From positions 1 to 26,112 of IMG/VR virus record IMGVR_UViG_3300044504_000122: 26,112 nucleotides of DNA. The stretch is one strand, 5' to 3'. Position numbers and translations under genes: made by a program. This DNA is from a virus. Lineage: Duplodnaviria; Caudoviricetes. Shown here in pieces: positions 1,926-23,430 of the stretch. The notes below the pieces were generated by a model. The model had not been told where the DNA came from, made no database searches, and saw only the letters and a program-made list of their open reading frames with translations. The stretch's first letter is position 1. Every line of letters starts with the position of its first letter.

Positions 1926-2675
1926 CTAACAACGGTATTGAGGAAGTCTGCGTAGAGCAGAAATTGTTGATCTGCCATTATCCAATGCTTGCTGAGATGG
2001 CTTTTCATGCTCTAAGGGAGGATTTGCGGTGGGCTGTGTTTTGGCAGCTTCATTCGCTTTAATCTGTGATGATATTCTATTTAAAACTTGCTGTGCTTTA
2101 GCAAAAGCATAGCGATTGCTAGGGTCTCTGGCAGTTTCATAAAGCGCGGCTGGTATCTTCTCTGGGTTTTTCCCCAACTCATAAATTATATCAGCAGCGT
2201 TTTCATAAGAATTAAATAAAACCGCTGTATTTGACGTTACAATATCCGCAAGATTATTTGTAACATCTTTATAATCCGCATAACGATCATAAGCCCCAGT
2301 TATTTTGCCGATAAGAGAATTAGTCGTCGCCATCACATTATTTTGAGCAACTAAGTGCTGAACAGCAGCACGTGTTCGATCAATATCTTGCTGGCTTAGA
2401 TCAACAGCGGGCGCCGCAGATTGCTGCTGAGCAAATTTCTGCTCGTACTCTGCCCTAGTTTTTTCTGTCGCTTCTCTTGCCGCTTTAGCCGCTATTCTAT
2501 TAACGGCTTCTCTATCATAAACCCCAAAATCTTTGCTCTTTTCTGCTTTACCTTCTACCCCTCTATCTACAACAGGAGCAGGTTGGGCTGAAACAGAATC
2601 TGTTTTTACTTCGCTACTGGTATCAACAGAAGAAGCATCGCCCCCGCTTGCTAAATTAGAATTTTCATCAGTCAT
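1926..2675 (-). CDS. Capsid scaffolding protein
   Basis: 249 aa, helical and low-complexity with an acidic N-terminus, YADYKDV..AADIIYELGKNPEK motif and basic C-terminal tip. Immediately upstream of the coat gene. Confidence 0.7.
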   Translation of the reverse strand: MTDENSNLASGGDASSVDTSSEVKTDSVSAQPAPVVDRGVEGKAEKSKDFGVYDREAVNRIAAKAAREATEKTRAEYEQKFAQQQSAAPAVDLSQQDIDRTRAAVQHLVAQNNVMATTNSLIGKITGAYDRYADYKDVTNNLADIVTSNTAVLFNSYENAADIIYELGKNPEKIPAALYETARDPSNRYAFAKAQQVLNRISSQIKANEAAKTQPTANPPLEHEKPSQQALDNGRSTISALRRLPQYRC

Positions 2676-2880: not shown

Positions 2881-5076
2881 ATGACAGAAATAGCGCAAAA
2901 ATATCAAGATGAACTAGAACGGATAAAAAAAAATATAGAAAATTCATATAACTGGTTTAAAGAGAATTATAAAAATTTTAATAGGACGATGTCTTATCTT
3001 TTTAAAACACAATTAACAAAAGAATATAAAAAATTATTAACAGATTTAAATAAACCATCTTTAGAATTTAATGTCTTAGAGGCATTCATTTCTAAACTTT
3101 GTGGCGAATTTTCCGACCAAGAGCCTTCCCTGAAGGTTTCTAATGATTTTAATGCCCCTACAAATTCAAAAGTCATTAATGTGGTAGAAGGACATCTTCG
3201 CCACATACTAGACAACGCCAGAAAAGACAACACCTTATACAGAACATTTAGAAATACAACCGCAGGCGGCTTCTCTGTATTGAAAGTATGGACAGAGTAC
3301 GCCCACCCAATGAGCATGGACCAAGTAATAAAATTTGGGGAGGTATACTCGCCTACGCTAACTTTTTTCGACCCAAATGCCCGCCAGCCGCACAAAGGGG
3401 ACGGAAACTTTTGCGGGGAAATATTCCCAGTCACAGAGGACGACTTTGAGCGTGAATATCCCGATATTGATATAAAGAAAATAGGAAGGTCCGCATATCT
3501 AGGAGATTTTAAGTGGGGATATTTAAATAATAGCAACAAAAAAATTATATTAAAATGCCACTATTACGAAAAAAAGAAAAAAAGAATAAGAATTGTGCAA
3601 TTGGTAAAAAGCCGATTCGGCGAAGGCATAGTTATACCAATGGATCAATACAAAGAACTTAGCGAAAACTGGGATAACTTAGGATTTCCTGAACCACTGC
3701 CAGCAATACTTGGCAAACCACGATGGACGGATATCGAAACAATAGTCAGATATACCATTATCGAAACTCAAATATTAAAACGCGAGGAAACCGACTATAC
3801 GATATTTCCACTAATTTTTGCCGATGGGAACTCTGAAATTATACAAGATGACGATAATACAATACATCAACTAACGCGCTCCTATATTAAAAACGCAAAA
3901 GGCATGCAGGATTTAATGAATTTTGCAGGCAATACGATGGGGCAAGAATTATCAAATATAATACAACACCAATTTACTATAGCCGAAGAAGCTTTACCCA
4001 AACAAACTAAATACAAAGAAGCTTATCAAGACACACAACATGCCGATCTATTGGTATACCGAGCTTATAGCGACAAAGAAATAACAAAACCCCTACCACC
4101 GCCTACCGTTGTCCAACGCCAAGCTATCCCTCCTCAGATCAGCGAAACATTTATTAACGCCCCGCAAACTGTACAAGTTTCACTCGGGGCTTATGATGCC
4201 TCTATAGTCAACACGCAAAATCCTATCCTTAGCGGGAAAGCCATTGTACAAGGAAACAAGGCTGCAAATGCCGCCTCTAAACCTTATCTTGTAAATATTA
4301 TCTGCTCACTTAATCGCGTGCTAGAATGCTGCCTGTCGTTAATTCCAAAATACTATATTACTCCACGAACAATACCCGTTATTGATGCAGACGGCAAAAG
4401 AAGCGCACAGCTAATCAATGTGCAAGGTAACCCGCAAAGCATCAACATGCAGTACGATGATAATGTATTGCAAGTGTCGGTTGAGGCGGGACCGTCTTTC
4501 GCGATCCAACAGGATGAAGCTTTAATGCAAGTCATGTCATTAGCAAACTCGATGCCTGGGTTCGCAGATTTCATCCAAAAGAAAGGGTTAAAATATATTA
4601 TCGACTGCTTGCATATCAAAGGCATTGATCAATTAAAAGAACTCGTTACCGTCTACCAATCTGAAATGGAACAACAGCAAAAACAAATGATGCAAATGCA
4701 GCAGCAATCCGTTATGAATAACCCAGCAATGCAAAAATTGCAGTTAGAAAAAGAGAAAATTGCATCACATGAAAGAGTGGAAGACGCCTACACCCAATTG
4801 GAAACCGCAAAAGTGGCAGTAAGCCAACAAAAAATGGAAAACGAAAAGCTGAAAACTATGGCAGATATAAGCAATGCCAACGTAGAAGCCCAAATTAAAA
4901 TAGATTCCCACCAAACAGAAAAGGCACGCATAGCAGCGGATATGGCTATAAATGCGTCAAAAGAATTACACGCCCAAAATATATCAACCCATAAAATAGG
5001 TCATGAAATAACAAAAACTATCCTAGACCACCACCACAAACAACAACAATTAAATAAAGAGGAAACCACTGAATGA
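2881..5076 (+). CDS. Portal protein, P22 gp1-like
   Basis: About 731 aa from ATG 2881 (AGGA upstream). KPSLEFNVLEAFISKLCGE, FFDPNA..DG.FC, LSGKAI and VSVEAGPSF motifs, plus a long Q-rich coiled-coil C-terminus like the P22 portal barrel. Adjacent to TerL. Confidence 0.85.
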   Translation: MTEIAQKYQDELERIKKNIENSYNWFKENYKNFNRTMSYLFKTQLTKEYKKLLTDLNKPSLEFNVLEAFISKLCGEFSDQEPSLKVSNDFNAPTNSKVINVVEGHLRHILDNARKDNTLYRTFRNTTAGGFSVLKVWTEYAHPMSMDQVIKFGEVYSPTLTFFDPNARQPHKGDGNFCGEIFPVTEDDFEREYPDIDIKKIGRSAYLGDFKWGYLNNSNKKIILKCHYYEKKKKRIRIVQLVKSRFGEGIVIPMDQYKELSENWDNLGFPEPLPAILGKPRWTDIETIVRYTIIETQILKREETDYTIFPLIFADGNSEIIQDDDNTIHQLTRSYIKNAKGMQDLMNFAGNTMGQELSNIIQHQFTIAEEALPKQTKYKEAYQDTQHADLLVYRAYSDKEITKPLPPPTVVQRQAIPPQISETFINAPQTVQVSLGAYDASIVNTQNPILSGKAIVQGNKAANAASKPYLVNIICSLNRVLECCLSLIPKYYITPRTIPVIDADGKRSAQLINVQGNPQSINMQYDDNVLQVSVEAGPSFAIQQDEALMQVMSLANSMPGFADFIQKKGLKYIIDCLHIKGIDQLKELVTVYQSEMEQQQKQMMQMQQQSVMNNPAMQKLQLEKEKIASHERVEDAYTQLETAKVAVSQQKMENEKLKTMADISNANVEAQIKIDSHQTEKARIAADMAINASKELHAQNISTHKIGHEITKTILDHHHKQQQLNKEETTE

Positions 5077-7935: not shown

Positions 7936-7949
7936 ATTACCCCTCACTT

Positions 7950-8442
7950 GTAGTAATTTTTACTTTATTTGTTATCACATGATAATAGCAGCCTTTACCA
8001 GCAGCGCACCACAGCATCTTTATGCGTCACCCCATGCCACTTAGGCGTATGACCCGCTTGATGCACTGCTGGGCTTATAGCTAGCTTATAGCTTATATAC
8101 TTACAGCATCGTGCCATAGTAGCAAAATTTGCATTGTTTTACAAGTACTTTTGCATTTACTTTCAATAATGGTAGTAAATTTTACTATGTATAGATGGTG
8201 GTAGCTGTTATTGATATAGTTCCGTGCTGTAAAATTTGCATTGGATAGTAGTAAAATTTGCATCGCCCTTATTTATACTCCTTATAAGATCATCCTCCTA
8301 CCAAAAAAAGCTCCTTACCGGGTATTAGCACGCTCTACCCTCCTGGTCAGACCCAGCATCCAACTTAAAAAATATTACCTAGATTTAGTAGTAAAATTAG
8401 CTATATTTAGTAGAAAAAAAAGATAGTAGTAAAATTTACTAC
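7950..8442. repeat. Dispersed repeats with core (TA)GTAGTAAAATTT(GCAT/ACTA), about 7 copies
   Basis: Copies start near 7950, 8117, 8172, 8229, 8246, 8386 and 8424; two are palindromic (8173-8187, 8426-8442). Confidence 0.8.
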
Positions 8443-8634
8443 AATTGAGTGGTATTTTTGCAGGGACGAAAAAAATACACACTTCAGCTCTTCCGTTTGT
8501 GAAACTAACTTTGTTTCTTGCTTTTTTATTTGCTTTTTTCTCCCGCTCGCAAATTGATACGGGTATTGTGCTGTCGCTTATTTGAGATGTGCTTGCTGAT
8601 GTTTGGTGTCTTAAAAAAGCATGAATAAGAATTT

Positions 8635-8663: not shown

Positions 8664-8832
8664 TAGCGAAAATGAAAATAAATGAAAATAAATGAAAATA
8701 ATTAGTACTCAAGGGAAAGTTAAGGAAAAGTTAAGAGAAGGAGTGTCCGCTGTTTCTATCCTTTTTCGAGGAAAGCACGTATTGATTTACGACAGTTCGA
8801 AACGGCGGCAATTCCAGTACTATTATATAACA

Positions 8833-8902
8833 TAAAATAAATAAATAAATAAATAAATAAATAAAATAAATGTTGACAAGTGCCACGCCTACAGTATATA
8901 CT
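8833..8902 (+). promoter_or_regulatory. Strong rightward early promoter with (AAAT)n UP tract
   Basis: TTGACA 8873-8878, 18 bp spacer, TATACT 8897-8902; (AAAT)n at about 8833-8871. Shares TTGACAAG..CAGTATA with the promoter at 16308. Confidence 0.7.
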
Positions 8903-8978: not shown

Positions 8979-9028
8979 AAATAAAATAAAATAAAATTAT
9001 TATTAACTAAAAATTGGAGATTAAAAAA

Positions 9029-9199
9029 ATGAATACAGAAATGTACAGAAAGCAAAGCGGCTGTTTATTTAAATTTTCTGAAAAGCATCGTGCATACGTG
9101 CAAGTGTATCGCAACGATCGCATAAGAACATTAGCCGGATTAATCGCAGAATATGAAGCAGAGTATGAAGACGAGTATGAAGAAGAATATGAGGACTAG
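9029..9199 (+). CDS. Small early protein with acidic tail, copy A
   Basis: ATG follows the conserved leader; near-identical paralogue at 9753; tail EYEAEYEDEYEEEYED. Confidence 0.8.
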   Translation: MNTEMYRKQSGCLFKFSEKHRAYVQVYRNDRIRTLAGLIAEYEAEYEDEYEEEYED

Positions 9200-9262
9200 C
9201 AAGGCAACAATATTTACTGCCGCAAAGGCAGCTTATTACAAACTAAAATTGGAGACAGAAAA

Positions 9263-9718
9263 ATGAACTCTTACACAACTGAAGAAGAAAATATAATCAA
9301 AAAAGCGACTGAAATTCTAAAAAGCAAATTTTCACGCGTTGGCGCAACAATAGAAGGCACAACATTTTGCAAAGATTATTTAATCTTAAAATTATCTGAT
9401 AGCGACGTGGAAAACTTCCATTGCCTTTTTCTTGACACCTCGCACCGCGTTATTTCTTTTGAAAAACTTTCTAGCGGCACAATTAATAGAGCAACAGTTT
9501 ATCCGCGCGAAATTTTAAAAAGAGCTTTTAAAAATAACGCCTCCGCCATTATCTTAGCGCACAATCACATGTCAAGCCCAATCAAAGCTAGCGATGACGA
9601 CATCAAATTAACCAAACTTTTAGTTGAAAATTTTAAGATTTTTGATGTTAAAATTCTGGATCATATTATAGTAGGCGAAGGGGACGCAATGAGCTTTGTC
9701 GACAGCGGGCTATTATAA
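9263..9718 (+). CDS. radC: RadC-like JAB domain protein
   Basis: ENFHCLFLD, GTINRATVYPREI, IILAHNHxS..SDDD..LT, LDHIIVG. Confidence 0.92.
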   Translation: MNSYTTEEENIIKKATEILKSKFSRVGATIEGTTFCKDYLILKLSDSDVENFHCLFLDTSHRVISFEKLSSGTINRATVYPREILKRAFKNNASAIILAHNHMSSPIKASDDDIKLTKLLVENFKIFDVKILDHIIVGEGDAMSFVDSGLL

Positions 9719-9752
9719 TTAATAAACTAACAAAAAATTGGAGACTAAAAAA

Positions 9753-9935
9753 ATGAATACAGAAATAGAAATGTACAGAAGGCAAAACGGCTGTTTATTT
9801 AAATTTTCCGAAGCGCATCGCGCTTACGTGCAAGTGTATCGCAACGATCGCATAAGAACATTAGCCGGATTAATCGCAGCGTATGAACGCGAAGAATGCG
9901 AAGAAAATGAGGAAAACGAGGAATATGAGGACTAG
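9753..9935 (+). CDS. Small early protein with acidic tail, copy B
   Basis: Paralogue of 9029-9199 within a roughly 230 bp direct duplication. Confidence 0.8.
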   Translation: MNTEIEMYRRQNGCLFKFSEAHRAYVQVYRNDRIRTLAGLIAAYEREECEENEENEEYED

Positions 9936-10047
9936 CAAAGCAACAATATTTACTGCCGCAAAGGCAGTTTAGAGATTGATTATATCGTATTTTGTTTTTA
10001 CTGCCGCGCAGGCAGCTTATTACAAACTAAAAATTGGAGATTAAAAA

Positions 10048-10275
10048 ATGAAACGCGTATCAGACTATTCAGAAATAAAACAATCCGAGGCTATCAAAAA
10101 CGCGGGTGCTTTTTTTGCGTTTGGAGACAAACAATTTAACGAGCGAAAAAAACCAAATGTAAAATATTGCTCGATTGTAGCTGGGTTGATATGTCCGCAA
10201 GAAACCGCGCAGCAGTTAATAAAAGATCTGCGCGACGTCAAAAAAGCGGCGATTGCTAAAAAAAAATCAACTTAA
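10048..10275 (+). CDS. Hypothetical early protein (GAFFAF motif)
   Basis: Conserved leader upstream; GAFFAFGDKQFNE..AGLICP. Confidence 0.7.
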   Translation: MKRVSDYSEIKQSEAIKNAGAFFAFGDKQFNERKKPNVKYCSIVAGLICPQETAQQLIKDLRDVKKAAIAKKKST

Positions 10276-10303
10276 TTTTAAACAAAAATTGGAGATTAAA
10301 AAA

Positions 10304-10630
10304 ATGAATACACCACTTGAAAAATTCTACGATCATTTTTCTTTTGAGAGAAAATTTACGAAAAACTATGCGCCGACCATTGCGCGCACGGAAACTGTAT
10401 TACGGCTTGGCATGTTAAATTCAAACTTTACAACAGCGGAACAAATGGTTGGCGATTTTAAGACGTACGGATCAGAAATATTGGAAAACAAAAATAATAC
10501 AACCAAACTATTTGAAGAATTTGTCCAAAATAATTCAGATGTTTACCAAAAATTTGCCCTATTTGCTGTTGAAAAGTATTGTAAAAAAATTGCTAAAAAA
10601 TTTATTAAACAATCAAAGGCTAAAAAATGA
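10304..10630 (+). CDS. Hypothetical early protein
   Basis: Start reassigned to ATG 10304 after the conserved leader. Confidence 0.7.
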   Translation: MNTPLEKFYDHFSFERKFTKNYAPTIARTETVLRLGMLNSNFTTAEQMVGDFKTYGSEILENKNNTTKLFEEFVQNNSDVYQKFALFAVEKYCKKIAKKFIKQSKAKK

Positions 10631-10914
10631 AAACCGAAAAATATTACGTTTATTATGTTTTATTCAATAAACACCGTATAGACCAATTCAAGTGGTTAAA
10701 AGATGCAAATAATGACATCGCTGAATTTGATACCAAAGAGGCGGCGTGGGATGCGGTAAAAAAAAGTAATATAACTGATGAGGCTTCATTTGTCACGACT
10801 ACAAAAGAAGATATTATTTTGCTAATGGGCGAGTTGCAAAAGGAACTTTCATTAATACATAAATTTTTGAAGCAAGAAGTAAGTTTCAGTAAGGATTGGA
10901 GATTAAAAAAATGA
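10627..10914 (+). CDS. Hypothetical early protein
   Basis: ATGA-coupled at both ends. Confidence 0.65.
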   Translation: MKTEKYYVYYVLFNKHRIDQFKWLKDANNDIAEFDTKEAAWDAVKKSNITDEASFVTTTKEDIILLMGELQKELSLIHKFLKQEVSFSKDWRLKK

Positions 10915-11216
10915 ACAATCAAGTTAATAATTTTGTGACTTTAGGACTTACTTTTTTAAGCAAAAGAGATTATATCGACGCATTAAAATATTTTAATGCC
11001 GCACTAGAGATTGAACCAAGTAAATATGAAGAAATATGGTGTTACAAAGGTTGCGCACTTGCAGAATTAAATAGCAATGATGAAGCGCTAAACTGTTTTA
11101 ATAAAGCATTACAAATTAAGCCTAATTCTATTGAAGCCACATATTTTAAAGATAAAATATTGAAAAAAATATATAGGGCTTCACAGCATACAGGGCTTAT
11201 TATTCGAGGAGATTAA
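10911..11216 (+). CDS. Small TPR-repeat protein
   Basis: Two TPR units: LGLTF..RDYIDALKYFNAALEIEP and WCYKGCAL..DEALNCFNKALQIKP; conserved leader upstream. Confidence 0.85.
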   Translation: MNNQVNNFVTLGLTFLSKRDYIDALKYFNAALEIEPSKYEEIWCYKGCALAELNSNDEALNCFNKALQIKPNSIEATYFKDKILKKIYRASQHTGLIIRGD

Positions 11217-11219
11217 AAA

Positions 11220-11558
11220 ATGACAGATGATAAACAGACAATTACAGATTTAGCCGAGTGTATGGCTAAATTATCCGAGGCGTCTAACGCAAAAGCTACA
11301 GAAGTATTGCAAGCTGCAATTATTTTTTTGAATGAAGCAATCAATAATTACAAAAAAATCAAAAGTGAACAAATATATAATCTTTTCAACAGCTATGGAA
11401 GATTTATTGACGATTTGGAAGGAAGGAACCTTTGCGGCGCAGAGGATTTACACTCGTACAATTGTTTTTTAAACGATTTAACAGCAACGGGGTTGGACAC
11501 AGACGAAGCAAAAGAACTGATAAGAAAATTGCTCATCAACTCAAAATACTATTCTTAA
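11220..11558 (+). CDS. Hypothetical early protein
   Basis: GAGGAGATTAAAAAATG leader variant. Confidence 0.7.
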   Translation: MTDDKQTITDLAECMAKLSEASNAKATEVLQAAIIFLNEAINNYKKIKSEQIYNLFNSYGRFIDDLEGRNLCGAEDLHSYNCFLNDLTATGLDTDEAKELIRKLLINSKYYS

Positions 11559-11588
11559 AATACTATTCTTAAATTGGAGACTAAAAAA

Positions 11589-11999
11589 ATGAATACACAA
11601 ACACGGCTAACTAATGATTTTGTTTTATCTAACTTTGCAGCTCTTGAAAAAGCGCTAGAAGAAGGTCGCCGCCTTGCTCTTTGTGATACTGCGTGCGCAG
11701 CAGATTTAGAACAAGCAGATTTTGAAGTAGAAAGAAAAATGCACGAAAAAGAAATGCTTAAGCAAGAAAAAGAAGACGAATTATCTCTAAAAAAAGAAAT
11801 GATAAAAACATATACTGTAACTTTTTCGCACGACGATTTTATCGCAGACAACAAAACAGAGAGAAGTTTTACGCATAAAATAAATGTGAAAGGAGATAGA
11901 ACATTGTCAATAGCTGATTTAAAAAGAGCTGTAGAGCAAGACAGTTTTTTGAAAGATAAAAATTTTGAAGATATACGATATTACGCGAGCGAAGTTTAG
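11589..11999 (+). CDS. Hypothetical early protein (coiled-coil middle)
   Basis: Start reassigned to ATG 11589 after the conserved leader. Confidence 0.7.
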   Translation: MNTQTRLTNDFVLSNFAALEKALEEGRRLALCDTACAADLEQADFEVERKMHEKEMLKQEKEDELSLKKEMIKTYTVTFSHDDFIADNKTERSFTHKINVKGDRTLSIADLKRAVEQDSFLKDKNFEDIRYYASEV

Positions 12000-12085
12000 A
12001 AATTATTAGAAATTAATTATTTATATTTTTGCATTCCCTGCTGCACAAGCAGCTTATTTACAAACTAAAAATTGGAGATTAAAAA

Positions 12086-12394
12086 ATGAATACATACAAC
12101 TTTACGCGACACCCCAGCGCCTCCGCAATTTCTGGGAAAAAACCAAACGGCAATTGGGCAGTAAAATGTAGGCTGACTGATTTAAACAAATACATACTTT
12201 TCGTCTACGGACACACTTACGCCGCGCGCACATGCGCGGAAATAAAAAAATTAGGCTGCGACTGGATAACTATATTTTTTGGAAGTAAAAAATCTGCGGC
12301 TTTAGCTGCTGCGAACATCCAAAAGTGCTGCGGGTACTATCGCGGCAAGTTGAAGAAGGATGTTGATATTTTTGGCGTTGTTAAAATAATTTAA
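12086..12394 (+). CDS. Hypothetical basic early protein
   Basis: Conserved leader and boxB-like hairpin upstream. Confidence 0.7.
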   Translation: MNTYNFTRHPSASAISGKKPNGNWAVKCRLTDLNKYILFVYGHTYAARTCAEIKKLGCDWITIFFGSKKSAALAAANIQKCCGYYRGKLKKDVDIFGVVKII

Positions 12395-12444
12395 ATTAAA
12401 AATTTAAACTAAAAATTTAAACTAAAAATTGGAGACCAAAAAAA

Positions 12445-12987
12445 ATGAATAGATTGATTGATATTGAATTTTTGAAAGACCGCGAGGCTTGCATCAATGG
12501 CATCAAATATTTTGAGGGAGAAATAAAAGAGCCAATCGCGGCGCGGGAGCTTATAAACAGGCTGCTTGCAGCTGATGATGTTGGAAAAATAAAATGGGTA
12601 AATTGGCTGTTGTGCAATCTTTTTCCGCGCGACCAAGCAATTGCTTATGCGGTTTTTGCGGCAGAGCAAGTATTATCGATTTTCGAAGCAAAATATCCAG
12701 CTGACAAACGCCCTCGAGAAGCTATTGAAGCCGCTAAACAAGTGCTGATTGAAGACAATGAAGGGAATAGGGCGAAGGCGAGGGCGGCGGCTGATAAGGC
12801 TTATGTGACTTATTCGGCGACTTACGCGGCTAGTGCGGCGGCTTATGCGTCTGATGTGGCTCATGCGTCTGCTGCGGCTTATTCGGCGGTGGCTTATGCG
12901 GCTGCGGCGGCTTATACGGCTGGAGGTAAAGAAATGTTGTTGAAAATAATTAGCTATGGAATTGGATTATTGGGGGTTAAAAAATGA
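12445..12987 (+). CDS. Imm5-like domain protein with Ala/Tyr-rich repeat, paralogue 1
   Basis: AVFAAEQVLSIFEAKYPADKRPREAIEAA resembles the Imm5-like (putative immunity) domain; three more paralogues at 20253-22080. Confidence 0.8.
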   Translation: MNRLIDIEFLKDREACINGIKYFEGEIKEPIAARELINRLLAADDVGKIKWVNWLLCNLFPRDQAIAYAVFAAEQVLSIFEAKYPADKRPREAIEAAKQVLIEDNEGNRAKARAAADKAYVTYSATYAASAAAYASDVAHASAAAYSAVAYAAAAAYTAGGKEMLLKIISYGIGLLGVKK

Positions 12988-13082
12988 AACTACACACAGT
13001 ATTATTACTATTATTACAATCTTTTTTAATCAGTAGTTTGCTTTTTATTTTTGCATTATCCGTGTTTTGCATTTTAACATAA
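12984..13082 (+). CDS. 32 aa hydrophobic peptide
   Basis: MKLHTVLLLLLQSFLISSLLFIFALSVFCILT; ATGA overlap with the upstream stop and GGGGG RBS; below the ORF-track cutoff. Confidence 0.55.
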   Translation: MKLHTVLLLLLQSFLISSLLFIFALSVFCILT

Positions 13083-13086
13083 AAAA

Positions 13087-13124
13087 ATAGCCGCTAGGGA
13101 AATTGAATAAAACCTAGCGGCTAT
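13087..13124. terminator. 12 bp hairpin, copy 1; U-tract on the minus strand
   Basis: ATAGCCGCTAGG/CCTAGCGGCTAT preceded by an A-run. Confidence 0.7.
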
Positions 13125-13182
13125 CTAAACCTGACAATGTATAAGTTAGTGCGCAAGAATTTAAAAAATTGGAGACTAAAAA

Positions 13183-13305
13183 ATGAATAGTATAGATAAG
13201 CTGATTAAGCGGATAGAGATATACGAAGCAATATTTAAAATTCTTATTTTTATTGTCTGCGCTGTAACAGTTGCCGCAGTCTGTTTTTTAGCTTTTTTTA
13301 CATAA
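13183..13305 (+). CDS. 40 aa single-TM peptide
   Basis: MNSIDKLIKRIEIYEAIFKILIFIVCAVTVAAVCFLAFFT after the conserved leader. Confidence 0.65.
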   Translation: MNSIDKLIKRIEIYEAIFKILIFIVCAVTVAAVCFLAFFT

Positions 13306-13308
13306 AAA

Positions 13309-13347
13309 ATAGCCGCTAGGGAAAATTGAATAAAACCTAGCGGCTAT
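13309..13347. terminator. 12 bp hairpin, copy 2
   Basis: Same stem as 13087-13124; loop one A longer. Confidence 0.7.
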
Positions 13348-13376
13348 CTAAAACTAACTAAGAGAGAAACATTATT

Positions 13377-14149: not shown

Positions 14150-15985
14150 TTAACTTTGCGCGATAATAAATTTATCCAATTCTTCATCGTCCAAGTCTTT
14201 TCCGCCTACATACAGCGTTTGCTCGCTTGCGTAATTGTCCCTAAAGCACCCGCTTGCCTTGTTAAACCACAGCTTAGTCCTTGTCTCCGTCCCATCATTG
14301 CGCTGCTTGTTGCAAATAAGAAGCGCATCTTCTTTTTGGGATATTTCGGAGGGTGTTGGCATTCCTGCTTCCTCTAATATTCGCATTTCCTCTTCTTTAT
14401 CTTTAGAGCGAAACAGCACAAAAGAATTGTCAGCAACGTTTGTAATTTCACTTGCTCCTTTCACGTCCAATTTGTTTGGGATAATCTTCTCGTTCAAAGG
14501 CTTGCGAGGATGTACGATTAAATGAATGTGGCAGTTAAATTTATTTTTGAAAGCTCCCAAAAGTTGGATTAATTTTGCTTGCGCTGAATAGTCTTCAGAG
14601 CCAACGTCAAGCTTCATTAAACTGTCGATTACAAAATGCGAAACAAAAAATCTTTTACGCGCATATTCAAAAACGTTTAGCAATCTGTGTATGTCTACCA
14701 TATCCACCAGCTCAAATATCCATAATTTTTCAGCAAAAAAATCATTGAAGACGCGCTTAATATGATCATCACAGGGCAGCGTTTTAAGCGTGGCTTGCCG
14801 TACTAGCCGCGTTAACAGCCTGTGCGGTTTAATTTCTAAGCTTGCGATACATATTTTTACATCTTGAGCAATTAGATGCAAACAAACTTGACCGATCAAC
14901 TGGCTTTTACCGTGTCCATTTATCCCTGACCAGATTGTAAGCTCGTCGTCTCTCAACGCAACTTTGCCAGCTAGGCTGGGGAACGGTAGTGCCAATCCGT
15001 CAAGCCCAGCTTCAACATTTTTCATGTGCGCGATAGTAGCGTCGATAAATTCTTTAGCTAAGCGCAGCTCTTTCGGCTTAAAATATCCGCTATTAAAATA
15101 ACAGTCCGCTATTTCTTCCCTAGATATATTTTTTTGCAAACATTCGTTTGCGTCCTTTTCTGGAAGCGTAACAATTCTGCACCTGTGCGCGCCAAGCCTT
15201 TCTACAACCTCTTTTATCGCCGCTTTACCCGCATCATCGTTGTCGTAGACGATAAAAATTTCGTCGTAGGCGGCAAGGTTGTCGTATTCGTACTCAATCC
15301 ACTTCGTGCCAGCCGCGCCAGTTGGAATTGATACCGCATTGTAACCATATGCCGCTAATGATAAAGCATCAATTTCACCTTCGCAAATAGAAATAGACCT
15401 AGACAATTTATTTATTGCTTGCCATCCAAATAAAATCGGCTTGCAATCTTTTGTGGAGTAAAATTGTTTGCGCCCGTTTTGACGAGCAATTTTAAGCCCT
15501 TTATCGTAGACAACTTCGCCACCCATGCTATAATAGGGGAAAATTATAATATCGGTTTTAGCAACAACTTTATATTTTTTGATAATTTCAAGCGGGATTT
15601 TTCTACCTATCAAATAATTTTCAGCTTCGCTATTGAGCGAATAACTGCTTAAATTAGGCTTTTTAAATATTTTACGCTCCGAGCTAACTGCGAATTTATT
15701 TTCCTCAATTCCTAAAAATTTTTGCGCAAATAAACACGCCTCTGTTAACCCAATCTTTTTGGTTACTTGAATTAAACCTATTAAGTCACCCTTCTCACCA
15801 GTCGCAAAGTCGTGCCATTGCCCCGCTTTCTCGCCTGAAATAGATACGTTAAGACTTTTCCCCACTTCGTCTTCCGCCGACCCCGCTACATATTCGTCGC
15901 CCCGCATTGTTCCGCTCGGGAGCAGCTGTTCGCACAGTTCTTTTGCTCGTTTTGCGAGATGTTGAGCCAGCTCTGTCGCTCGCAT
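14150..15985 (-). CDS. Primase-helicase, T7 gp4/Twinkle-like (TOPRIM + SF4)
   Basis: ICEGEIDALS and YDNDDAG (TOPRIM), KDANE, Walker A GINGHGKS, VIDSL, IVHPRK, KGASEI, KQR; GGAGG RBS. Confidence 0.93.
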   Translation of the reverse strand: MRATELAQHLAKRAKELCEQLLPSGTMRGDEYVAGSAEDEVGKSLNVSISGEKAGQWHDFATGEKGDLIGLIQVTKKIGLTEACLFAQKFLGIEENKFAVSSERKIFKKPNLSSYSLNSEAENYLIGRKIPLEIIKKYKVVAKTDIIIFPYYSMGGEVVYDKGLKIARQNGRKQFYSTKDCKPILFGWQAINKLSRSISICEGEIDALSLAAYGYNAVSIPTGAAGTKWIEYEYDNLAAYDEIFIVYDNDDAGKAAIKEVVERLGAHRCRIVTLPEKDANECLQKNISREEIADCYFNSGYFKPKELRLAKEFIDATIAHMKNVEAGLDGLALPFPSLAGKVALRDDELTIWSGINGHGKSQLIGQVCLHLIAQDVKICIASLEIKPHRLLTRLVRQATLKTLPCDDHIKRVFNDFFAEKLWIFELVDMVDIHRLLNVFEYARKRFFVSHFVIDSLMKLDVGSEDYSAQAKLIQLLGAFKNKFNCHIHLIVHPRKPLNEKIIPNKLDVKGASEITNVADNSFVLFRSKDKEEEMRILEEAGMPTPSEISQKEDALLICNKQRNDGTETRTKLWFNKASGCFRDNYASEQTLYVGGKDLDDEELDKFIIAQS

Positions 15986-16232
15986 CGGTTTTTTCCTCCA
16001 AATTTATACATATGTAATCGTCAAGTATTTGTTCGACAGTAAATTCATTCGATAATTTATGCCTGCGGATAAGATTTAATATTTTAATTAAAGTTTTTCC
16101 TGTCGGTAAATATCTTAAATTTTGTAAAAACATAAAGTGATGAGGGTGGCAGCCTATTTCGCTCGCCATTCCTACGATTGATAACCCCAGTTTGTTCTTA
16201 ATTTTTTTTATCGTTGATATTTTATTTAACAT
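15849..16232 (-). CDS. Cro/XRE-like HTH protein
   Basis: IKKIKNKLGLSIVGMASEIGC...P is an XRE HTH pattern; AAGGTG RBS before ATG 16232. The 3' end overlaps the primase gene by 137 nt. Confidence 0.6.
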   Translation of the reverse strand: MLNKISTIKKIKNKLGLSIVGMASEIGCHPHHFMFLQNLRYLPTGKTLIKILNLIRRHKLSNEFTVEQILDDYICINLEEKTDASDRAGSTSRKTSKRTVRTAAPERNNAGRRICSGVGGRRSGEKS

Positions 16233-16247
16233 TTTTTCACCTTTTTG

Positions 16248-16336
16248 TTGCAATATTATTTATATTATACTATACTGCGAACGATTGCAATATTAATCAT
16301 AATAATATTGACAAGCGATGTTGCGGTCAGTATACT
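16248..16336. promoter_or_regulatory. Divergent promoter region with repeated TTGCAATATTA boxes
   Basis: Rightward TTGACA (16308-13), 17 bp, TATACT (16331-36). Leftward TTGCAA (16290-85), 17 bp, TAATAT. Boxes at 16248 and 16285, with an inverted variant at 16303. Confidence 0.75.
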
Positions 16337-16365
16337 TGCTTAGGTAAGTGAAGTAAAGAAAGAGC

Positions 16366-16444
16366 GTGCCGTGCTGTCCTTTAATTTGTTAATTGTTGGT
16401 TGGAAAATAACAGCGATTATAACACATCTCAAGCAGCGCGGCAC
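16366..16444 (+). ncRNA. Long structured hairpin in the promoter-proximal leader
   Basis: GTGCCGTGCTG/CAGCGCGGCAC (11 bp, one G-U); inner AATTGTTG/CAGCGATT (two G-U); loop GTTGGAAAATAA. The G-U pairs favour the + strand. Confidence 0.6.
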
Positions 16445-16461
16445 AATCTTTAACTTTTTCT

Positions 16462-16530
16462 GGGGCATTAACTCAATAAGTAGAGAGGCTTTAATAAGCT
16501 GAATTGAAGGTTCAAATCCTTCATGCCCCG
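16462..16530 (+). tRNA. Degenerate tRNA-like element, no assignable anticodon
   Basis: Perfect acceptor stem GGGGCAT/ATGCCCC, T-arm GAAGG-TTCAAAT-CCTTC, D stem CTC/GAG. The anticodon arm is 3-4 nt short, the D-loop lacks GG, and the 3' end is GCCT rather than NCCA. Confidence 0.75.
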
Positions 16531-16535
16531 CCTAC

Positions 16536-16609
16536 TGTGCTCCACCGATGAGGTGCGGTTTCCAATAATCCGCGCATTCTTTCTAAAGAACTCATCCAAG
16601 TGGAGCACA
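16536..16609 (+). ncRNA. Three-way-junction structured RNA
   Basis: TGTGCTCCAC/GTGGAGCACA (10 bp), GATGAG/CTCATC (6 bp), GTGCGG/CCGCGC with loop TTTCCAATAAT, and TTCTT/AAGAA. Confidence 0.65.
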
Positions 16610-16633
16610 CGTTTTATCTATAAGAGGAAAATT

Positions 16634-17074
16634 ATGAAAACAAAATTTGAAGCATTCGTCGAAGAGATATTGTGCCACGACTATTCCCCAGAAGGGATTG
16701 ATGAGTGGGGCGACTTAAACGAAGAACATCAGGAAGAAATAAAAATCGAAGTCATAGATGACGATGTTGAATACAAAAGCTGGGAAGAATATTTTTTTGA
16801 CTGCAACGAAAGATTGGACCTGTTAAAAGGAATTAGCCGCTCACATATAAACGGGCTACTTGACGCGAAAAATAAAAACAAATTTGAAAAGAAATATGCA
16901 AATAATGCGAAAGAGCTTTGCAGCAAAGTAAAAAAAGAATTTTGTGAAATCCTTGACGATTATTGCAAATGGCGGGTCGATGAAATAATAGCTAATTACA
17001 CTTTCCCGACAGAAAGAGAATTATATTTTTCAGACAATGAAACCGAATTACTAGAAGAAATGCGAGGTGATTAA
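16634..17074 (+). CDS. Acidic hypothetical protein
   Basis: Start reassigned to ATG 16634 (GAGG RBS); D/E-dense N- and C-termini. Confidence 0.75.
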   Translation: MKTKFEAFVEEILCHDYSPEGIDEWGDLNEEHQEEIKIEVIDDDVEYKSWEEYFFDCNERLDLLKGISRSHINGLLDAKNKNKFEKKYANNAKELCSKVKKEFCEILDDYCKWRVDEIIANYTFPTERELYFSDNETELLEEMRGD

Positions 17075-17583
17075 TGGGTATCCCTGAACATCGTGTAAAT
17101 GCACTAACTTTTGCTACGCATGCGCCTGAGCTTTTAAAAGGAATGCAAGGAGCGCAGTTAGCACCTGAAAATTCTATGGAGTGTGGGGAAGAACGCGAAA
17201 AACAACCACAAATTATTATCAAAACCTCCTGCGAAACAATTACTAGTCAAAAATTAAATTTTGAACATGACATGTTGTTAATGACCGCGCGAGAGGCTGT
17301 AGCTGTATATGGAGAGTATTTGGGCGGGGGATTTCATGATATTATTATTCGGGATGATTTGTTACCAAGCCTCACAGCTAATCACTTGCAAGCCTTAGGG
17401 GGCAATAGCAACTTCCCTAAAATTAAAATTATAAATTCCAAAAACGATAAATATATTTTGGGGGCAGTATTTTTTTGGCAAGCCATTTCCCATTCTAATA
17501 ATAAACCACAATGGATGCGCAAGCTTTGGAAATGGCTTGTTAAAAAAATTACTAAATATCAAAACACACACGAGGAACAATAA
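17074..17583 (+). CDS. Hypothetical protein
   Basis: TAATG coupling and GAGGTG RBS. Confidence 0.7.
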   Translation: MGIPEHRVNALTFATHAPELLKGMQGAQLAPENSMECGEEREKQPQIIIKTSCETITSQKLNFEHDMLLMTAREAVAVYGEYLGGGFHDIIIRDDLLPSLTANHLQALGGNSNFPKIKIINSKNDKYILGAVFFWQAISHSNNKPQWMRKLWKWLVKKITKYQNTHEEQ

Positions 17584-20252: not shown

Positions 20253-20864
20253 ATGAACGTATTAGACACAATAATTGATTTACAGTTTTTGAAAGATAAA
20301 GACGCTTGCAAAGAGGGCATTGTATATTTTGAGAAAAACATCAAAGAGCCTATCGCGGCGCGGGAGTTGATAGAGAAGCTCCTTGCAACAAAGAAGCGGG
20401 AAAAAATGGAATGGGTGAGTTGGCTTCTTTGTCAATTATTTAATCTCCCACACTACATCCAGTACGCGGTTTTTGCTTCAGAGCAAGTACTACCAATTTT
20501 TGAAGCTAAATATCCATCCGACAAACGCCCGCGCGAAGCAATCGAAGCCGCTAAGAAAGTTGCGCTTAATGACACTGAGGAAAATAGAAAAATTGCGGCT
20601 AGAGCGGCTTATGTGGCTAATGAGGCGGCTAATGCGGCTAATGAGGCGGCTAATGCGGCTAATGCGGCGGCTTATGCGGCTAATGCGGCGGCTTATGCGG
20701 CTAATGCGGTGGCTTATGCGGCGGATTATGCGGCGGATTATGCGGCGGCTTATGTGGCTTATGCGGCTGAGGCGGCGGCTAATGCGGTGGCTTATACGGC
20801 TGGAGGCAAAGAAATGCTCCTAAAAATAATTAGCTTTGGAATTGGATTATTGGAGAATAAATAA
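20253..20864 (+). CDS. Imm5-like domain protein with Ala-rich repeat, paralogue 2
   Basis: Same architecture as paralogue 1, with GCGGCT(A/T/G)AT repeats. Confidence 0.85.
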   Translation: MNVLDTIIDLQFLKDKDACKEGIVYFEKNIKEPIAARELIEKLLATKKREKMEWVSWLLCQLFNLPHYIQYAVFASEQVLPIFEAKYPSDKRPREAIEAAKKVALNDTEENRKIAARAAYVANEAANAANEAANAANAAAYAANAAAYAANAVAYAADYAADYAAAYVAYAAEAAANAVAYTAGGKEMLLKIISFGIGLLENK

Positions 20865-21442
20865 TGGGCACATTAGACACAATGATTGATTTAGGGTTTT
20901 TGAAAGATAAAGATGCTTGCGAAAAGGGCATCGTATATTTCGAAACACAGATAGCAGAGCCAATCGCGGCGCGGGAGCTTATAAACAGGCTGCTTGCAGC
21001 TGATGATGTTGGAAAAATCTGGTGGGTGAATTGGCTTCTTTGTCGATTATTTACTCGCCCACAGTACATACAGTACGCGATATTCTCGGCTGAGCAAGTA
21101 TTATCGATTTTCGAAGCAAAATATCCAGCTGACAAACGCCCTCGAGAAGCTATTGAAGCCGCTAAACAAGTGCTGATTGAAGACAATGAAGGGAATAGGG
21201 CGAAGGCGAGGGCGGCGGCTGATGAGGCTTATGTGACTTATTCGGCGGCTAATGCGGCTAATACTGCGGCTAATGCGGCGGCTTATGCGGCTTATGCTGC
21301 TGGTAATTCGCTTCATTCGGCGGCTTATTTGGCGGTTAATGCGGCGGCTTATGCAGCTCATGCGACTTACGCGGCTGGAGGTAAAGAAATGCTACTAAAA
21401 ATAATTAGCTTTGGAATTGGATTATTGGAGAATAAAAGATGA
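20864..21442 (+). CDS. Imm5-like domain protein with Ala-rich repeat, paralogue 3
   Basis: TAATG-coupled; long segments identical to paralogue 1. Confidence 0.85.
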   Translation: MGTLDTMIDLGFLKDKDACEKGIVYFETQIAEPIAARELINRLLAADDVGKIWWVNWLLCRLFTRPQYIQYAIFSAEQVLSIFEAKYPADKRPREAIEAAKQVLIEDNEGNRAKARAAADEAYVTYSAANAANTAANAAAYAAYAAGNSLHSAAYLAVNAAAYAAHATYAAGGKEMLLKIISFGIGLLENKR

Positions 21443-22080
21443 GTAACTTAAACAAAATTATTAATATTGAATTTTTGAAAGACCGCGATGCTTGCAAAGA
21501 GGGCATAAAATATTTTGAGGAAGAAATAAAAGAGCCTATCACCGCGCGGGAGTTGATAGAGAAGCTCCTTGCAGCGGATGATGGCGGAAAAATCTGGTGG
21601 GCGAATTGGCTGCTAGTGCGCTTGTTCGGTCGCGAGCAGGCAATTGCGTATTCGGTTTTTGCTGCTGAGCAAGTTTTGCCAATTTTTGAGCAAGAATATC
21701 CGAATGACAAACGCCCGCGCAAAGCAATCGAGGCCGCTAAGCAAGTTGTGCTTAATGACACTGAGGAAAATAGAAAAATTGCGGTTAATGCGGCTAATGC
21801 GGCGGCTAATGCGACTAATGCGGCTAATGCGGCTAATGCGGCGGCTGATGCGGCGGCTTATGCGGTTTATGCGGCGGCTTATGCGGCGGCTAATGCGGCT
21901 AATGCGGCTTATGTGGCGGATTATGCGGCTTATGCGGTGGCTTATGCGGCTAATGCGGCTGATGCGGCTAATGCGGCTGGAGGCAAAGAAATGCTCCTAA
22001 AAATAATTAGCTTTGGAATTGGATTATTGGAGGTTTTAACTGCTTATGAAAATCCAACAAAATCAAAAGAAATCGGTTAA
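21439..22080 (+). CDS. Imm5-like domain protein with Ala-rich repeat, paralogue 4
   Basis: ATGA-coupled; the last about 15 codons run into the inserted element. Confidence 0.85.
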   Translation: MSNLNKIINIEFLKDRDACKEGIKYFEEEIKEPITARELIEKLLAADDGGKIWWANWLLVRLFGREQAIAYSVFAAEQVLPIFEQEYPNDKRPRKAIEAAKQVVLNDTEENRKIAVNAANAAANATNAANAANAAADAAAYAVYAAAYAAANAANAAYVADYAAYAVAYAANAADAANAAGGKEMLLKIISFGIGLLEVLTAYENPTKSKEIG

Positions 22081-22128: not shown

Positions 22129-22299
22129 ATGAAAGTCACAAAGGTAACGAAAGAGTATTTTCAGACAGAGGACGAGAAGGTTTATTTCTTCGAGCCTTTG
22201 GAAAAAGAAATATCCGTTGAGGATATGCAGAAGATTGTTGATGCAAACGAGAAATTAGTTAAGGAGTTGAAAGATGGAACAAATACCGTTTCCAGATAA
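22129..22299 (+). CDS. 56 aa hypothetical protein
   Basis: MKVTKVTKEYFQTEDEKVYFFEPLEKEISVEDMQKIVDANEKLVKELKDGTNTVSR; AAGGAG RBS; overlaps the methyltransferase start. Confidence 0.7.
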   Translation: MKVTKVTKEYFQTEDEKVYFFEPLEKEISVEDMQKIVDANEKLVKELKDGTNTVSR

Positions 22300-22816
22300 A
22301 AAATATCAAATAATTTATGCAGACCCGCCCTGGAGTTACAGAGATAAGGCTTTGGCTGGTAATCGTGGTGCGGGGTGTAAGTACCAAGTTCAAGAAAAAG
22401 ACTGGATAGATAACCTACCTGTTTCAGATATAGCAGATAAAGACTGCATTCTTTTCTTGTGGGTTACTATGCCTAAACTAAATGAGTGTTGGGAACTCAT
22501 AGAAAAATGGGGCTTTGAGTACAAAACAGTTGCTTTTACTTGGGTTAAAAGAAACAAAAAAAGCAATACATGGTTTTGGGGTATGGGTAGATGGACAAGA
22601 GTAAATGCAGAACTATGCTTGATTGCAACTAAAGGAAAGCCAAAAAGAATAAATGCTGGTGTTCATTCTGTAATCGACACTCCCATTGAAGGACACAGTA
22701 AAAAGCCAGACGAAGCAAAAAAAAGAATTATTGAGTTGGTTGGAGATTTACCAAAAATAGAACTTTTTGCCAGACAAAAGACGGACGGCTGGGATGTTTG
22801 GGGCAATGAAGTATGA
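22274..22816 (+). CDS. MT-A70 family N6-adenine methyltransferase
   Basis: IIYADPPW, LFLWVT, WGFEYKT..FTWVK, HSKKP, IELFAR, GWDVWGNE. Confidence 0.93.
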   Translation: MEQIPFPDKKYQIIYADPPWSYRDKALAGNRGAGCKYQVQEKDWIDNLPVSDIADKDCILFLWVTMPKLNECWELIEKWGFEYKTVAFTWVKRNKKSNTWFWGMGRWTRVNAELCLIATKGKPKRINAGVHSVIDTPIEGHSKKPDEAKKRIIELVGDLPKIELFARQKTDGWDVWGNEV

Positions 22817-23430
22817 AAATCTATAAAATCACAGAGGCAAGTGAGTATCTTGGGGTATCAATCAATACGCTCAAGACACTTGCTAACAACGGAAATGTAA
22901 AGTCTTTCAAGACTACTGGAGAGCATAGGCGTTTTCGTCAGGAAGATTTAGACGCTTATATGGGAGTCGAGAAAGAGAAACAAGAAAAGTTGACTGTGAT
23001 TTATGCCAGATGTTCAACAGCCAAACAGAAAGAAAACCTTGAGAGGCAAAAAGACAGGTTGAGAAAGTTTGCTGAAAACAAAGGTTACAAATTTATTCTG
23101 ATTGATGAAATAGCAAGTGGAATAAATGAGAAGCGGAAAGGATTACACAAACTAATCAAATTATGTTTTGAGGGCAAAGTTGAACGAATCCTGATTGAGT
23201 ATAAAGACAGGCTTGCCCGATTTGGTTACGAGTATCTGGATGCTATTTTTAAGAATTTGGAAATTACTGTTGAAGTCGTTGAGACGAAAGAAAAGAAATA
23301 TGAAGAAGAATTAGCAGAGGATATTATGAAAATTCTTACCTGTTATTCTGCTCGTTTTTATGGAAGAAGAGGCGGTAGAAAGAAGAAAAATAAGGCTGAA
23401 AATGAGCCTAACGAATCTAATGGAATTTAA
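22813..23430 (+). CDS. tnpA: IS607-family serine transposase (MerR-type HTH + resolvase domain)
   Basis: EASEYLGVSINTL..TTGEHRRF, IYARCS..QKENLERQ, DEIASG, DRLARFG, EELAEDIMKILTCYSARFYGRR. Confidence 0.93.
   Translation: MKIYKITEASEYLGVSINTLKTLANNGNVKSFKTTGEHRRFRQEDLDAYMGVEKEKQEKLTVIYARCSTAKQKENLERQKDRLRKFAENKGYKFILIDEIASGINEKRKGLHKLIKLCFEGKVERILIEYKDRLARFGYEYLDAIFKNLEITVEVVETKEKKYEEELAEDIMKILTCYSARFYGRRGGRKKKNKAENEPNESNGI

Follow-up and report, generated by a model that had tools for sequence, protein, structure and literature searches.

A folded leader RNA in a partial tailed-phage genome with a loop complementary to ribosome sites and to an upstream hairpin: a possible C4/CI-like antisense RNA

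The stretch of DNA analysed here, called the window, is the entire virus record IMGVR_UViG_3300044504_000122 (26,112 nt), a partial tailed-phage genome. Pfam and PHROGs scans of 35 ORFs identified genes for a P22-like portal, terminase, endolysin, primase-helicase, and SSB-, Sak4- and exonuclease-like proteins, together with four Imm5-like Ala-rich paralogues, an MT-A70 methylase and an IS607-type recombinase; about 15 ORFs of this partial contig were without a family. The closest primase relatives (41–46%) include many Legionellales-type elements, which does not fix the host, and the runs containing phage DNA are soil, sediment and aquatic metagenomes. The methylase and the IS607-type serine recombinase lie at 22274–23430, with no TnpB gene detected after the recombinase; contig joints show that this block varies or is common to other elements. 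The Imm5-like paralogues (20253–22080) are mosaic across strains (contigs L001, L180–L185, L211, L213 and L242), with variable Ala-Ala-Tyr repeats and exchanged halves, and form a fast-changing array. Repeated and folded sequences occur elsewhere in the window: a 27-nt inverted repeat (89%; 7938–7964 and 8428–8454) brackets a non-coding stretch of 463 nt that separates the packaging from the early region, a 58-nt hairpin is duplicated at 13072–13129 and 13295–13352 on either side of a 40-codon ORF, and a 22-bp hairpin (91% complementary, 17469–17549) lies within the end of ORF 17074–17583.

Two strong promoter-like sites were found, one at 8873–8902 heading the early gene array and one at 16308–16336 heading the recombination operon. 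Transcription of the leader and of the recombination/paralogue operon behind it is predicted to start from the second. Both sites contain TTGACAAG and CAGTAT..ACT, and their sequences suggest that they may be under common control. Just upstream of the early promoter, 8742–8809 on the minus strand matches the Rfam family DUF3800-IX with 37.7 bits, against a gathering score of 36.8. Divergent from the second leader and overlapping the primase start is ORF 15849–16253 (minus strand), whose N-terminus looks by eye like a Cro-type helix-turn-helix; neither Pfam nor PHROGs gave a match to it. Three folded elements are predicted downstream of the second promoter, ahead of the first gene (ATG 16634); they are listed here with the promoter and their loops:

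16308–16336, plus strand: sigma-70-type promoter-like site, TTGACA-17-TATACT, a consensus match only (11/12)
16366–16444, plus strand: element A, a long hairpin with a central bubble (z −4.7) and an apical loop at 16399–16410
16399–16406, plus strand: GTTGGAAA in loop A, which pairs with the element B loop over 8 nt (7 Watson-Crick pairs, 1 terminal G-U)
16462–16530, plus strand: tRNA-shaped element, Rfam tRNA model 40.5 bits
16536–16609, plus strand: element B, a three-way junction of 74 nt with a 10-bp stalk and two hairpins (z −6.8)
16559–16569, plus strand: apical loop 1 of B in the predicted fold, UUUCCAAUAAU, 11 nt, the candidate seed
16581–16588, plus strand: loop 2 region of B, which can pair with CTTTGGAA just upstream of the paralogue site (7 Watson-Crick pairs, 1 G-U)

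The fold of B was matched in stability by none of 200 shuffles, and two G-U pairs in A favour the plus strand. Apart from the tRNA-shaped part, this three-element leader stands outside the Rfam families: A and B had no Rfam family, and searches of 16300–16700 with the C4, c4-a1b1 and isrK models returned none up to an E-value of 10. The middle element has an acceptor stem, a D arm and a T arm, with a 4-nt loop in the anticodon position instead of a 5-bp stem and 7-nt loop and with no encoded CCA. ARAGORN called no tRNA there, and relaxed ARAGORN settings were too noisy for use. The element is 73–76% like phage tRNA-Lys and tRNA-Asn genes and is predicted to be a processing signal. A 183-codon ORF (16523–17074) running across B was set aside; it is without a ribosome site, and the real start is likely 16634. 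ORFs 16634 and 17074 had no family above cut-off on this partial contig and are followed by the SSB-, Sak4- and exonuclease-like genes.

Such tRNA shapes are not confined to the window. Counting its own, RNAs with a shortened anticodon arm occur in three unrelated phage groups and have a D arm of the form CTCAA..GTAGAGAG in common:

16462–16530 of the window, plus strand: tRNA-shaped element
7142–7211 of L058: look-alike
6947–7016 of L061: look-alike
2486–2556 of L329, minus strand: look-alike

In L058 and L061 the look-alike, beside a second T-arm element, belongs to a folded non-coding region of 500 nt some 800 nt ahead of a Sak4 gene.

The original prediction concerned the stretch formed by loop 1 of B and three stem bases, and proposed that it is antisense to ribosome-binding sites shared by the paralogues and the early genes. 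Its complementarity claims held on inspection. TCCAATAATCC occupies 16561–16571, and its exact reverse complement GGATTATTGGA is present at 20844, 21419 and 22021, with 10 of 11 nt of the complement at the end of paralogue 1 (12964); TTTCCAAT pairs with ATTGGAGA by 7 Watson-Crick pairs and one G-U, and ten early genes are preceded by ATTGGAGA. The placement of the seed in an apical loop was borne out for the open loop 16559–16569, while the last two C residues of the 11-mer are stem-paired. The sites are:

4797–4809, plus strand: 13-nt perfect complement of B in the portal coding sequence, longer than the paralogue match and used as a chance comparator
9013–13175, plus strand: early array with ten ATTGGAGA leaders (9013, 9248, 9737, 10033, 10288, 10895, 11573, 12071, 12428, 13168), weak predicted targets
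12964–12973, plus strand: 10-nt match at the end of paralogue 1
20844–20856, plus strand: end of paralogue 2 and ribosome site of paralogue 3, predicted net energy −8.1 kcal/mol
21419–21431, plus strand: end of paralogue 3 and ribosome site of paralogue 4, best predicted site, net −9.0
22021–22031, plus strand: same 11-mer within paralogue 4, away from the next larger gene's start

Overlap with the ribosome site of the next gene, which had been claimed throughout, applies to paralogues 1, 2 and 3, where the following starts are ATG 12984 (a 32-codon ORF), 20864 and 21439, respectively. At paralogue 4 it fails: the site is intragenic and could be used only by a 28-codon ORF at 22046; the next larger gene (22129) starts 98 nt farther on and has an AAGGAG of its own. 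The entire 11-nt loop pairs with ATTATTGGAG(A/G), and the paralogue ends give 13–14 nt including G-U pairs. An upstream purine run matches another stretch of the loop 2 region than the one used in pairing with CTTTGGAA. The original prediction had missed one partner, loop A, about 160 nt upstream on the same transcript. The gene directly after B (ATG 16634) contains no partner site (5 pairs, −5.2, loop only). Two other ideas were tried and rejected. B is not an inverted copy of a paralogue end, as the pairing blocks (14, 8 and 6 nt) are broken by non-matching stretches, and TTGGAG is not the ordinary ribosome tag of related elements, where it is uncommon.

Sequences, complementarity and strain variation were observed directly, and folds and energies were computed. 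Predicted sites on the sense strand (265 in all) were ranked with our own approximation of IntaRNA, which considers contiguous helices only and includes opening costs. The four best are the paralogue ends (net −9.0, −8.1, −7.4 and −6.9), three of them at start regions, followed by the portal site (−6.4), two sites in coding sequence (−5.6, −5.5), then loop A (−5.4) and the early leaders (−5.2 to −3.5), which are interspersed with coding sites. An accessible loop seed over ribosome sites, as in anti-Shine-Dalgarno sRNAs, is predicted and is weak at the early leaders. Cofolding at full length gave no gain over the separate molecules.

How far these matches exceed chance depends on what is counted. 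The perfect 11-mer by itself is ordinary and not beyond chance, since shuffles of the 74-nt RNA gave one on the sense strands in 24% of 5000 cases, and a 13-mer in 1.7%. The 14 sites are not independent either: the four paralogues have one origin and the ten leaders one motif, so that a single UUGGA motif has been multiplied by duplication (ATTGGA occurs 23 times and TTGGAAA 11 times on the plus strand of the window). Centring the match on the loop and on start regions gives smaller values, P 0.003–0.007 for the best site and 0.007–0.015 for the early leaders. Over 45 start regions, two of them doubtful and left out of the later shuffle and real-loop tests, the loop's best duplex (−11.1) was reached by 0.5–0.7%, and the early-leader median (−8.1) by 0.7–1.5%, of 400 shuffled or genomic 11-mers; 13- and 15-nt versions gave 3% for the best site against genomic nulls. 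When the loop was shuffled 600 times, with accessibility taken into account, 1 shuffle reached the best start-region energy and 7 reached the number of start regions. This test let helices start two bases later, whereby the portal site was lost.

Real hairpin loops from the non-coding stretches of other loci, taken from 111 AT-rich loci out of 114, form a harsher null. Thirteen of 108 reached the best-site energy (2 of 60 low-GC loops) and one of 108 the early-leader median. Four control loops of the window gave P 0.10–0.90 in the start-region test. That the loop matches ribosome sites more often than shuffled loops do was therefore upheld, with P 0.002–0.015 against shuffles and overall odds of about 1 in 100 per loop, or about 1 in 10 per window, the latter an estimate from the nine comparable loops in the window. 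We regard this excess over chance as suggestive, not compelling.

The contact between loop B and loop A is a second coincidence of similar size (P 0.001–0.019), and for that reason we do not call all of the complementarity chance. Its duplex had P 0.004 against shuffled A and 0.001 against genomic 12-mers, and was reached by none of 108 real loops; when loop B was allowed any site in the 119-nt 5′ leader, P was 0.019 (genomic) and 9 of 108 real loops did as well.

A distinctly possible account, second in our ranking, is that the complementarity is fortuitous: B would be a real folded cis element of the leader, a processing or termination structure by a decayed tRNA slot, and its loop would mirror the word TTGGA, a run of Leu-Glu codons and this lineage's ribosome tag, multiplied by duplication. 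All of the matches have the UUGGA core in common, and the frequency of perfect 11-mers in shuffles, together with the 13-nt portal match, shows how such matches arise. In ten other loci, one of 83 loops matched the top leader word of its locus over 8 nt, and that loop was inside coding sequence. Against this account, it needs two separate coincidences, both centred on one large loop, with the ribosome tag at about 0.01 per loop and loop A at 0.001–0.08 depending on the null.

Coding constraint and strain variation bear on the same question. Near the C-terminus, 97 of 120 paralogue homologs carry an [IL][IL]x[YF]G anchor; xLL(E/K) or a like motif mostly comes next, and distant ones include GLLE itself. 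In the distant phages L186–L189, the next gene overlaps and takes the Leu-Glu codons TTGGAG as its ribosome site; a homolog of B was not detected at any of these loci. The paralogue site is thus protein-coded, a conserved xLL(E/K) codon run serving as a ribosome site as well. Among near-identical strains, the leader including B is the same in L001 and L182 save for one promoter-spacer base (L002, L091 and L179 are the L001 contig again), yet position 2 of the 11-mer differs in two of three tandem ends of L001 and in the one visible end of L182. Across ten strain contigs, the 11-mer is kept at 5 of 17 ends, the core ATTATTGGAG at 13, the loop 2 site at 5 and both sites at 3; eight of the ten do not reach the RNA, all are near-identical strains, and they may sample one population. 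The changes fall in the stem-invading part and would take the duplex from about −16 to about −10. Independent variation of loop and target, which the original prediction had named as evidence against itself, is therefore seen in part: the full 11-mer drifts while the RNA is fixed, as expected from chance complementarity, and the loop-facing core is kept. Retention of the core is no proof of pairing, because the codons and the ribosome site would keep it anyway.

The original prediction went further and held that one sRNA could explain the conservation of the early leaders. A trans-acting sRNA with an 8–10-nt seed would, on this account, shut off the whole early array and the paralogues and serve as a post-infection timer. 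None of the eight seed-facing bases of ATTGGAGA varies among the ten window leaders, 8 of 9 additional strain leaders agree with them, and the sequence is rare elsewhere (0 of 227, 4 of 224, 4 of 252 and 0 of 110 GGAG leaders). C and T predominate at the two positions after the seed, and either can pair with the loop-flanking GG; the other genes of B's operon carry other ribosome tags, and start regions make up 11 of the top 20 sites, a figure equalled by 8 of 600 shuffles. The predicted pairing argues the other way: at −3.5 to −5.2 kcal/mol net, with a G-U in the middle of GGAG, the early leaders are no better than same-seed sites inside coding sequences. So does the extent of conservation, since the A-run before the start and ATGAA, both outside the seed, are as invariant as the seed itself (column counts of n=11, including one non-leader row, 12919). 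We consider this account unlikely.

Leader conservation needs no sRNA, because recombination between repeated cassettes accounts for the shared sequence; the invariant block exceeds the seed, and strains swap genes at the leaders. L001 tracks the window as far as the 10288 leader, beyond which it has different genes until 11208. In two runs, contigs skip from 9684 to 10275 and from 10312 to 10906. The repeated early leaders are best explained as strong ribosome sites serving as gene-cassette exchange points. PeSL cassettes of T4-type phages are similar, with a repeated regulatory sequence between non-essential early genes and exchange of modules; the PeSL repeat (PMC2839356) is a promoter plus terminator, whereas here it is a ribosome-site leader, found four times after a CRISPR-repeat-like hairpin.

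Those hairpins lie between early genes and match the Rfam model CRISPR-DR4 with 20–30 bits, below its 35-bit cut-off:

9212–9239, plus strand: type I-F CRISPR-repeat-like hairpin
9948–9975, plus strand: type I-F CRISPR-repeat-like hairpin
9996–10023, plus strand: type I-F CRISPR-repeat-like hairpin
12033–12060, plus strand: type I-F CRISPR-repeat-like hairpin, with a compensatory pair

The 5-bp stem and 5-nt loop are intact. Three of the hairpins stand just before a ATTGGAGA leader, and the conserved bases upstream of three leaders run on from the hairpin. Two are 20 nt apart, like a mini-array, and nothing else in the window comes within 4 mismatches of the 20-nt spacer. By sequence the hairpins are candidates for RNA anti-CRISPRs (Racr, as described in PMC10651486) or for sites at which Cas6f would cut the early mRNA in two. 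The primase relative L264 has three such repeats at about 16850–16970 (minus strand) with spacers of 19 and 25 nt; two score 35.0 and 34.6 bits, and the second spacer has ATCGTAT in common with the window's spacer. Another relative, L096, has one repeat unit (2397–2424, minus strand). These hairpins may be a better lead than B in the window and deserve a follow-up of their own.

Control of shared early ribosome sites by a protein is known from T4 RegA and RegB. By that precedent, a translational repressor or nuclease could read UUGGA here, with loop A as operator or decoy and the B loop incidental. Loop A resembles the paralogue junction beyond the part that B can pair with (TTGGAAAATAA versus TTGGAGAATAA); no such family was found among the 35 ORFs by Pfam and PHROGs, on a partial contig with about 15 ORFs outside any family. 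We hold this to be very improbable.

Small RNAs such as NfeR1, AbcR and RsaE act through a single-stranded loop complementary to the ribosome sites of many mRNAs. B is predicted to resemble them in this respect; it differs in that its loop is not C-rich, it forms a G-U against the GGAG core, and its candidate targets are the phage's own genes. Its closest likeness is to phage antisense RNAs. C4 pairs by a loop over a ribosome site (excerpts of PMC5320573), and P4 CI has one upstream and one downstream partner (PMC4825925, in part). Like B, the C4 RNAs of P1 and P7 (RF01695; c4-a1b1, RF03163) are about 75 nt long and lie within a leader, with tRNA-type processing, which is predicted for B (PMC5320573 and PMC2864571, passages on C4). 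In both, a UU(U/G)CCAA-type seed faces UUGG(A/C)A in an upstream hairpin loop and at a downstream ribosome site; the Rfam consensus lines give a C4 seed UUgCcAA against UUUGGCAG, resembling that of B, a likeness noticed post hoc. P4 CI and Gifsy-1 IsrK/STnc1160 are likewise processed RNAs (as B would be) from an untranslated leader with sites upstream and downstream (PMC4825925, in part). An upstream complementary site on its own transcript, as in C4 and CI, is present for B as the 8 nt shared with loop A, at the level of complementarity.

The differences are as clear. B has two hairpins, not three, and carries its seed in an apical loop, not in a junction strand; RNA and target are separated by a tRNA mimic that is an element of its own; and the downstream partners are 4.3–4.9 kb away rather than at the next gene, a non-adjacency that also sets B apart from CI and IsrK. 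C4 and CI mature through RNase P into a stable RNA and control an antirepressor or kil/icd operon; no antirepressor family was detected on this partial contig. Covariance models of C4, c4-a1b1 and isrK gave no match to B (the absence of an isrK match being a further difference from IsrK), while a clear C4/c4-a1b1/isrK locus, L083 2845–3043 (plus strand), scored 59.8, 54.7 and 50.1 bits as a positive control. On model score, structure and the lack of an adjacent target, B is not a member of the C4 family.

Searches for relatives of B returned its own strains. Viral pattern scans for diverged homologs gave the near-identical L001 alone: it was the one locus of the first scan, and among the 14 of the second, L091 is L001, L083 is the unrelated true C4 with its match elsewhere in the RNA, and the rest are chance matches in coding sequence or repeats. 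GenBank phages contained nothing like B beyond the tRNA similarity. No relative of B was found in 80 Sak4, 80 viral and 80 genomic primase and 67 paralogue loci, save the strain contigs L002, L179 and L182, and sets of 5, 86 and 401 genomes held only short matches (21 in the 401, against 12 control matches). Three look-alikes were rejected: L031 lies inside coding sequence, the L187 hairpin is antisense within a helicase gene, and an L164 loop fitting the window leaders is the opposite strand of a ribosome-site-like word at that locus. In one RNA run, X12, whose library may contain DNA, contigs covered 15900–16294 and other genes and none covered 16295–17200; such contigs show presence only. 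Narrow-term searches of the openly licensed literature found no phage sRNA pairing with its own early ribosome sites and no phage tRNA mimic without an anticodon.

The probabilities that we attach to the four readings are judgements rather than computed values. The one that we put first, tentatively and at less than an even chance, is that B is a C4/CI-like antisense RNA acting on the paralogue junctions, on loop A or on both, and likely released beside an anticodon-less tRNA mimic. An upstream loop partner, a processed RNA of about 75 nt and a downstream ribosome-site partner together are the C4/CI layout. Transcription would begin at 16343, and host tRNA-processing nucleases would cut at the ends of the tRNA mimic, freeing B. 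Pairing would start in the loop, after which two stem bases would open to give 13–14 bp at the junctions. The best predicted partners of B are the paralogue-junction ribosome sites and the loop upstream on its own transcript; predicted pairing is good at no more than two or three genes and weak at the ten early leaders. The outcome would be that paralogues 3 and 4 are translated less, or that contact with loop A attenuates the operon. The bolder proposal, that B freed by host tRNA-processing enzymes silences all of the exchangeable early cassettes through their common tag, with loop A as a delaying decoy, is improbable in our judgement.

If the loop acts, B would be a phage antisense RNA new to the catalogues, matured with the help of a separate tRNA mimic. 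If the boldest reading is true, one RNA would switch all of the early cassettes, whichever genes are swapped in. And if the loop does not act, the locus would illustrate how duplicated ribosome tags and Leu-Glu codons can make one chance match look like fourteen.
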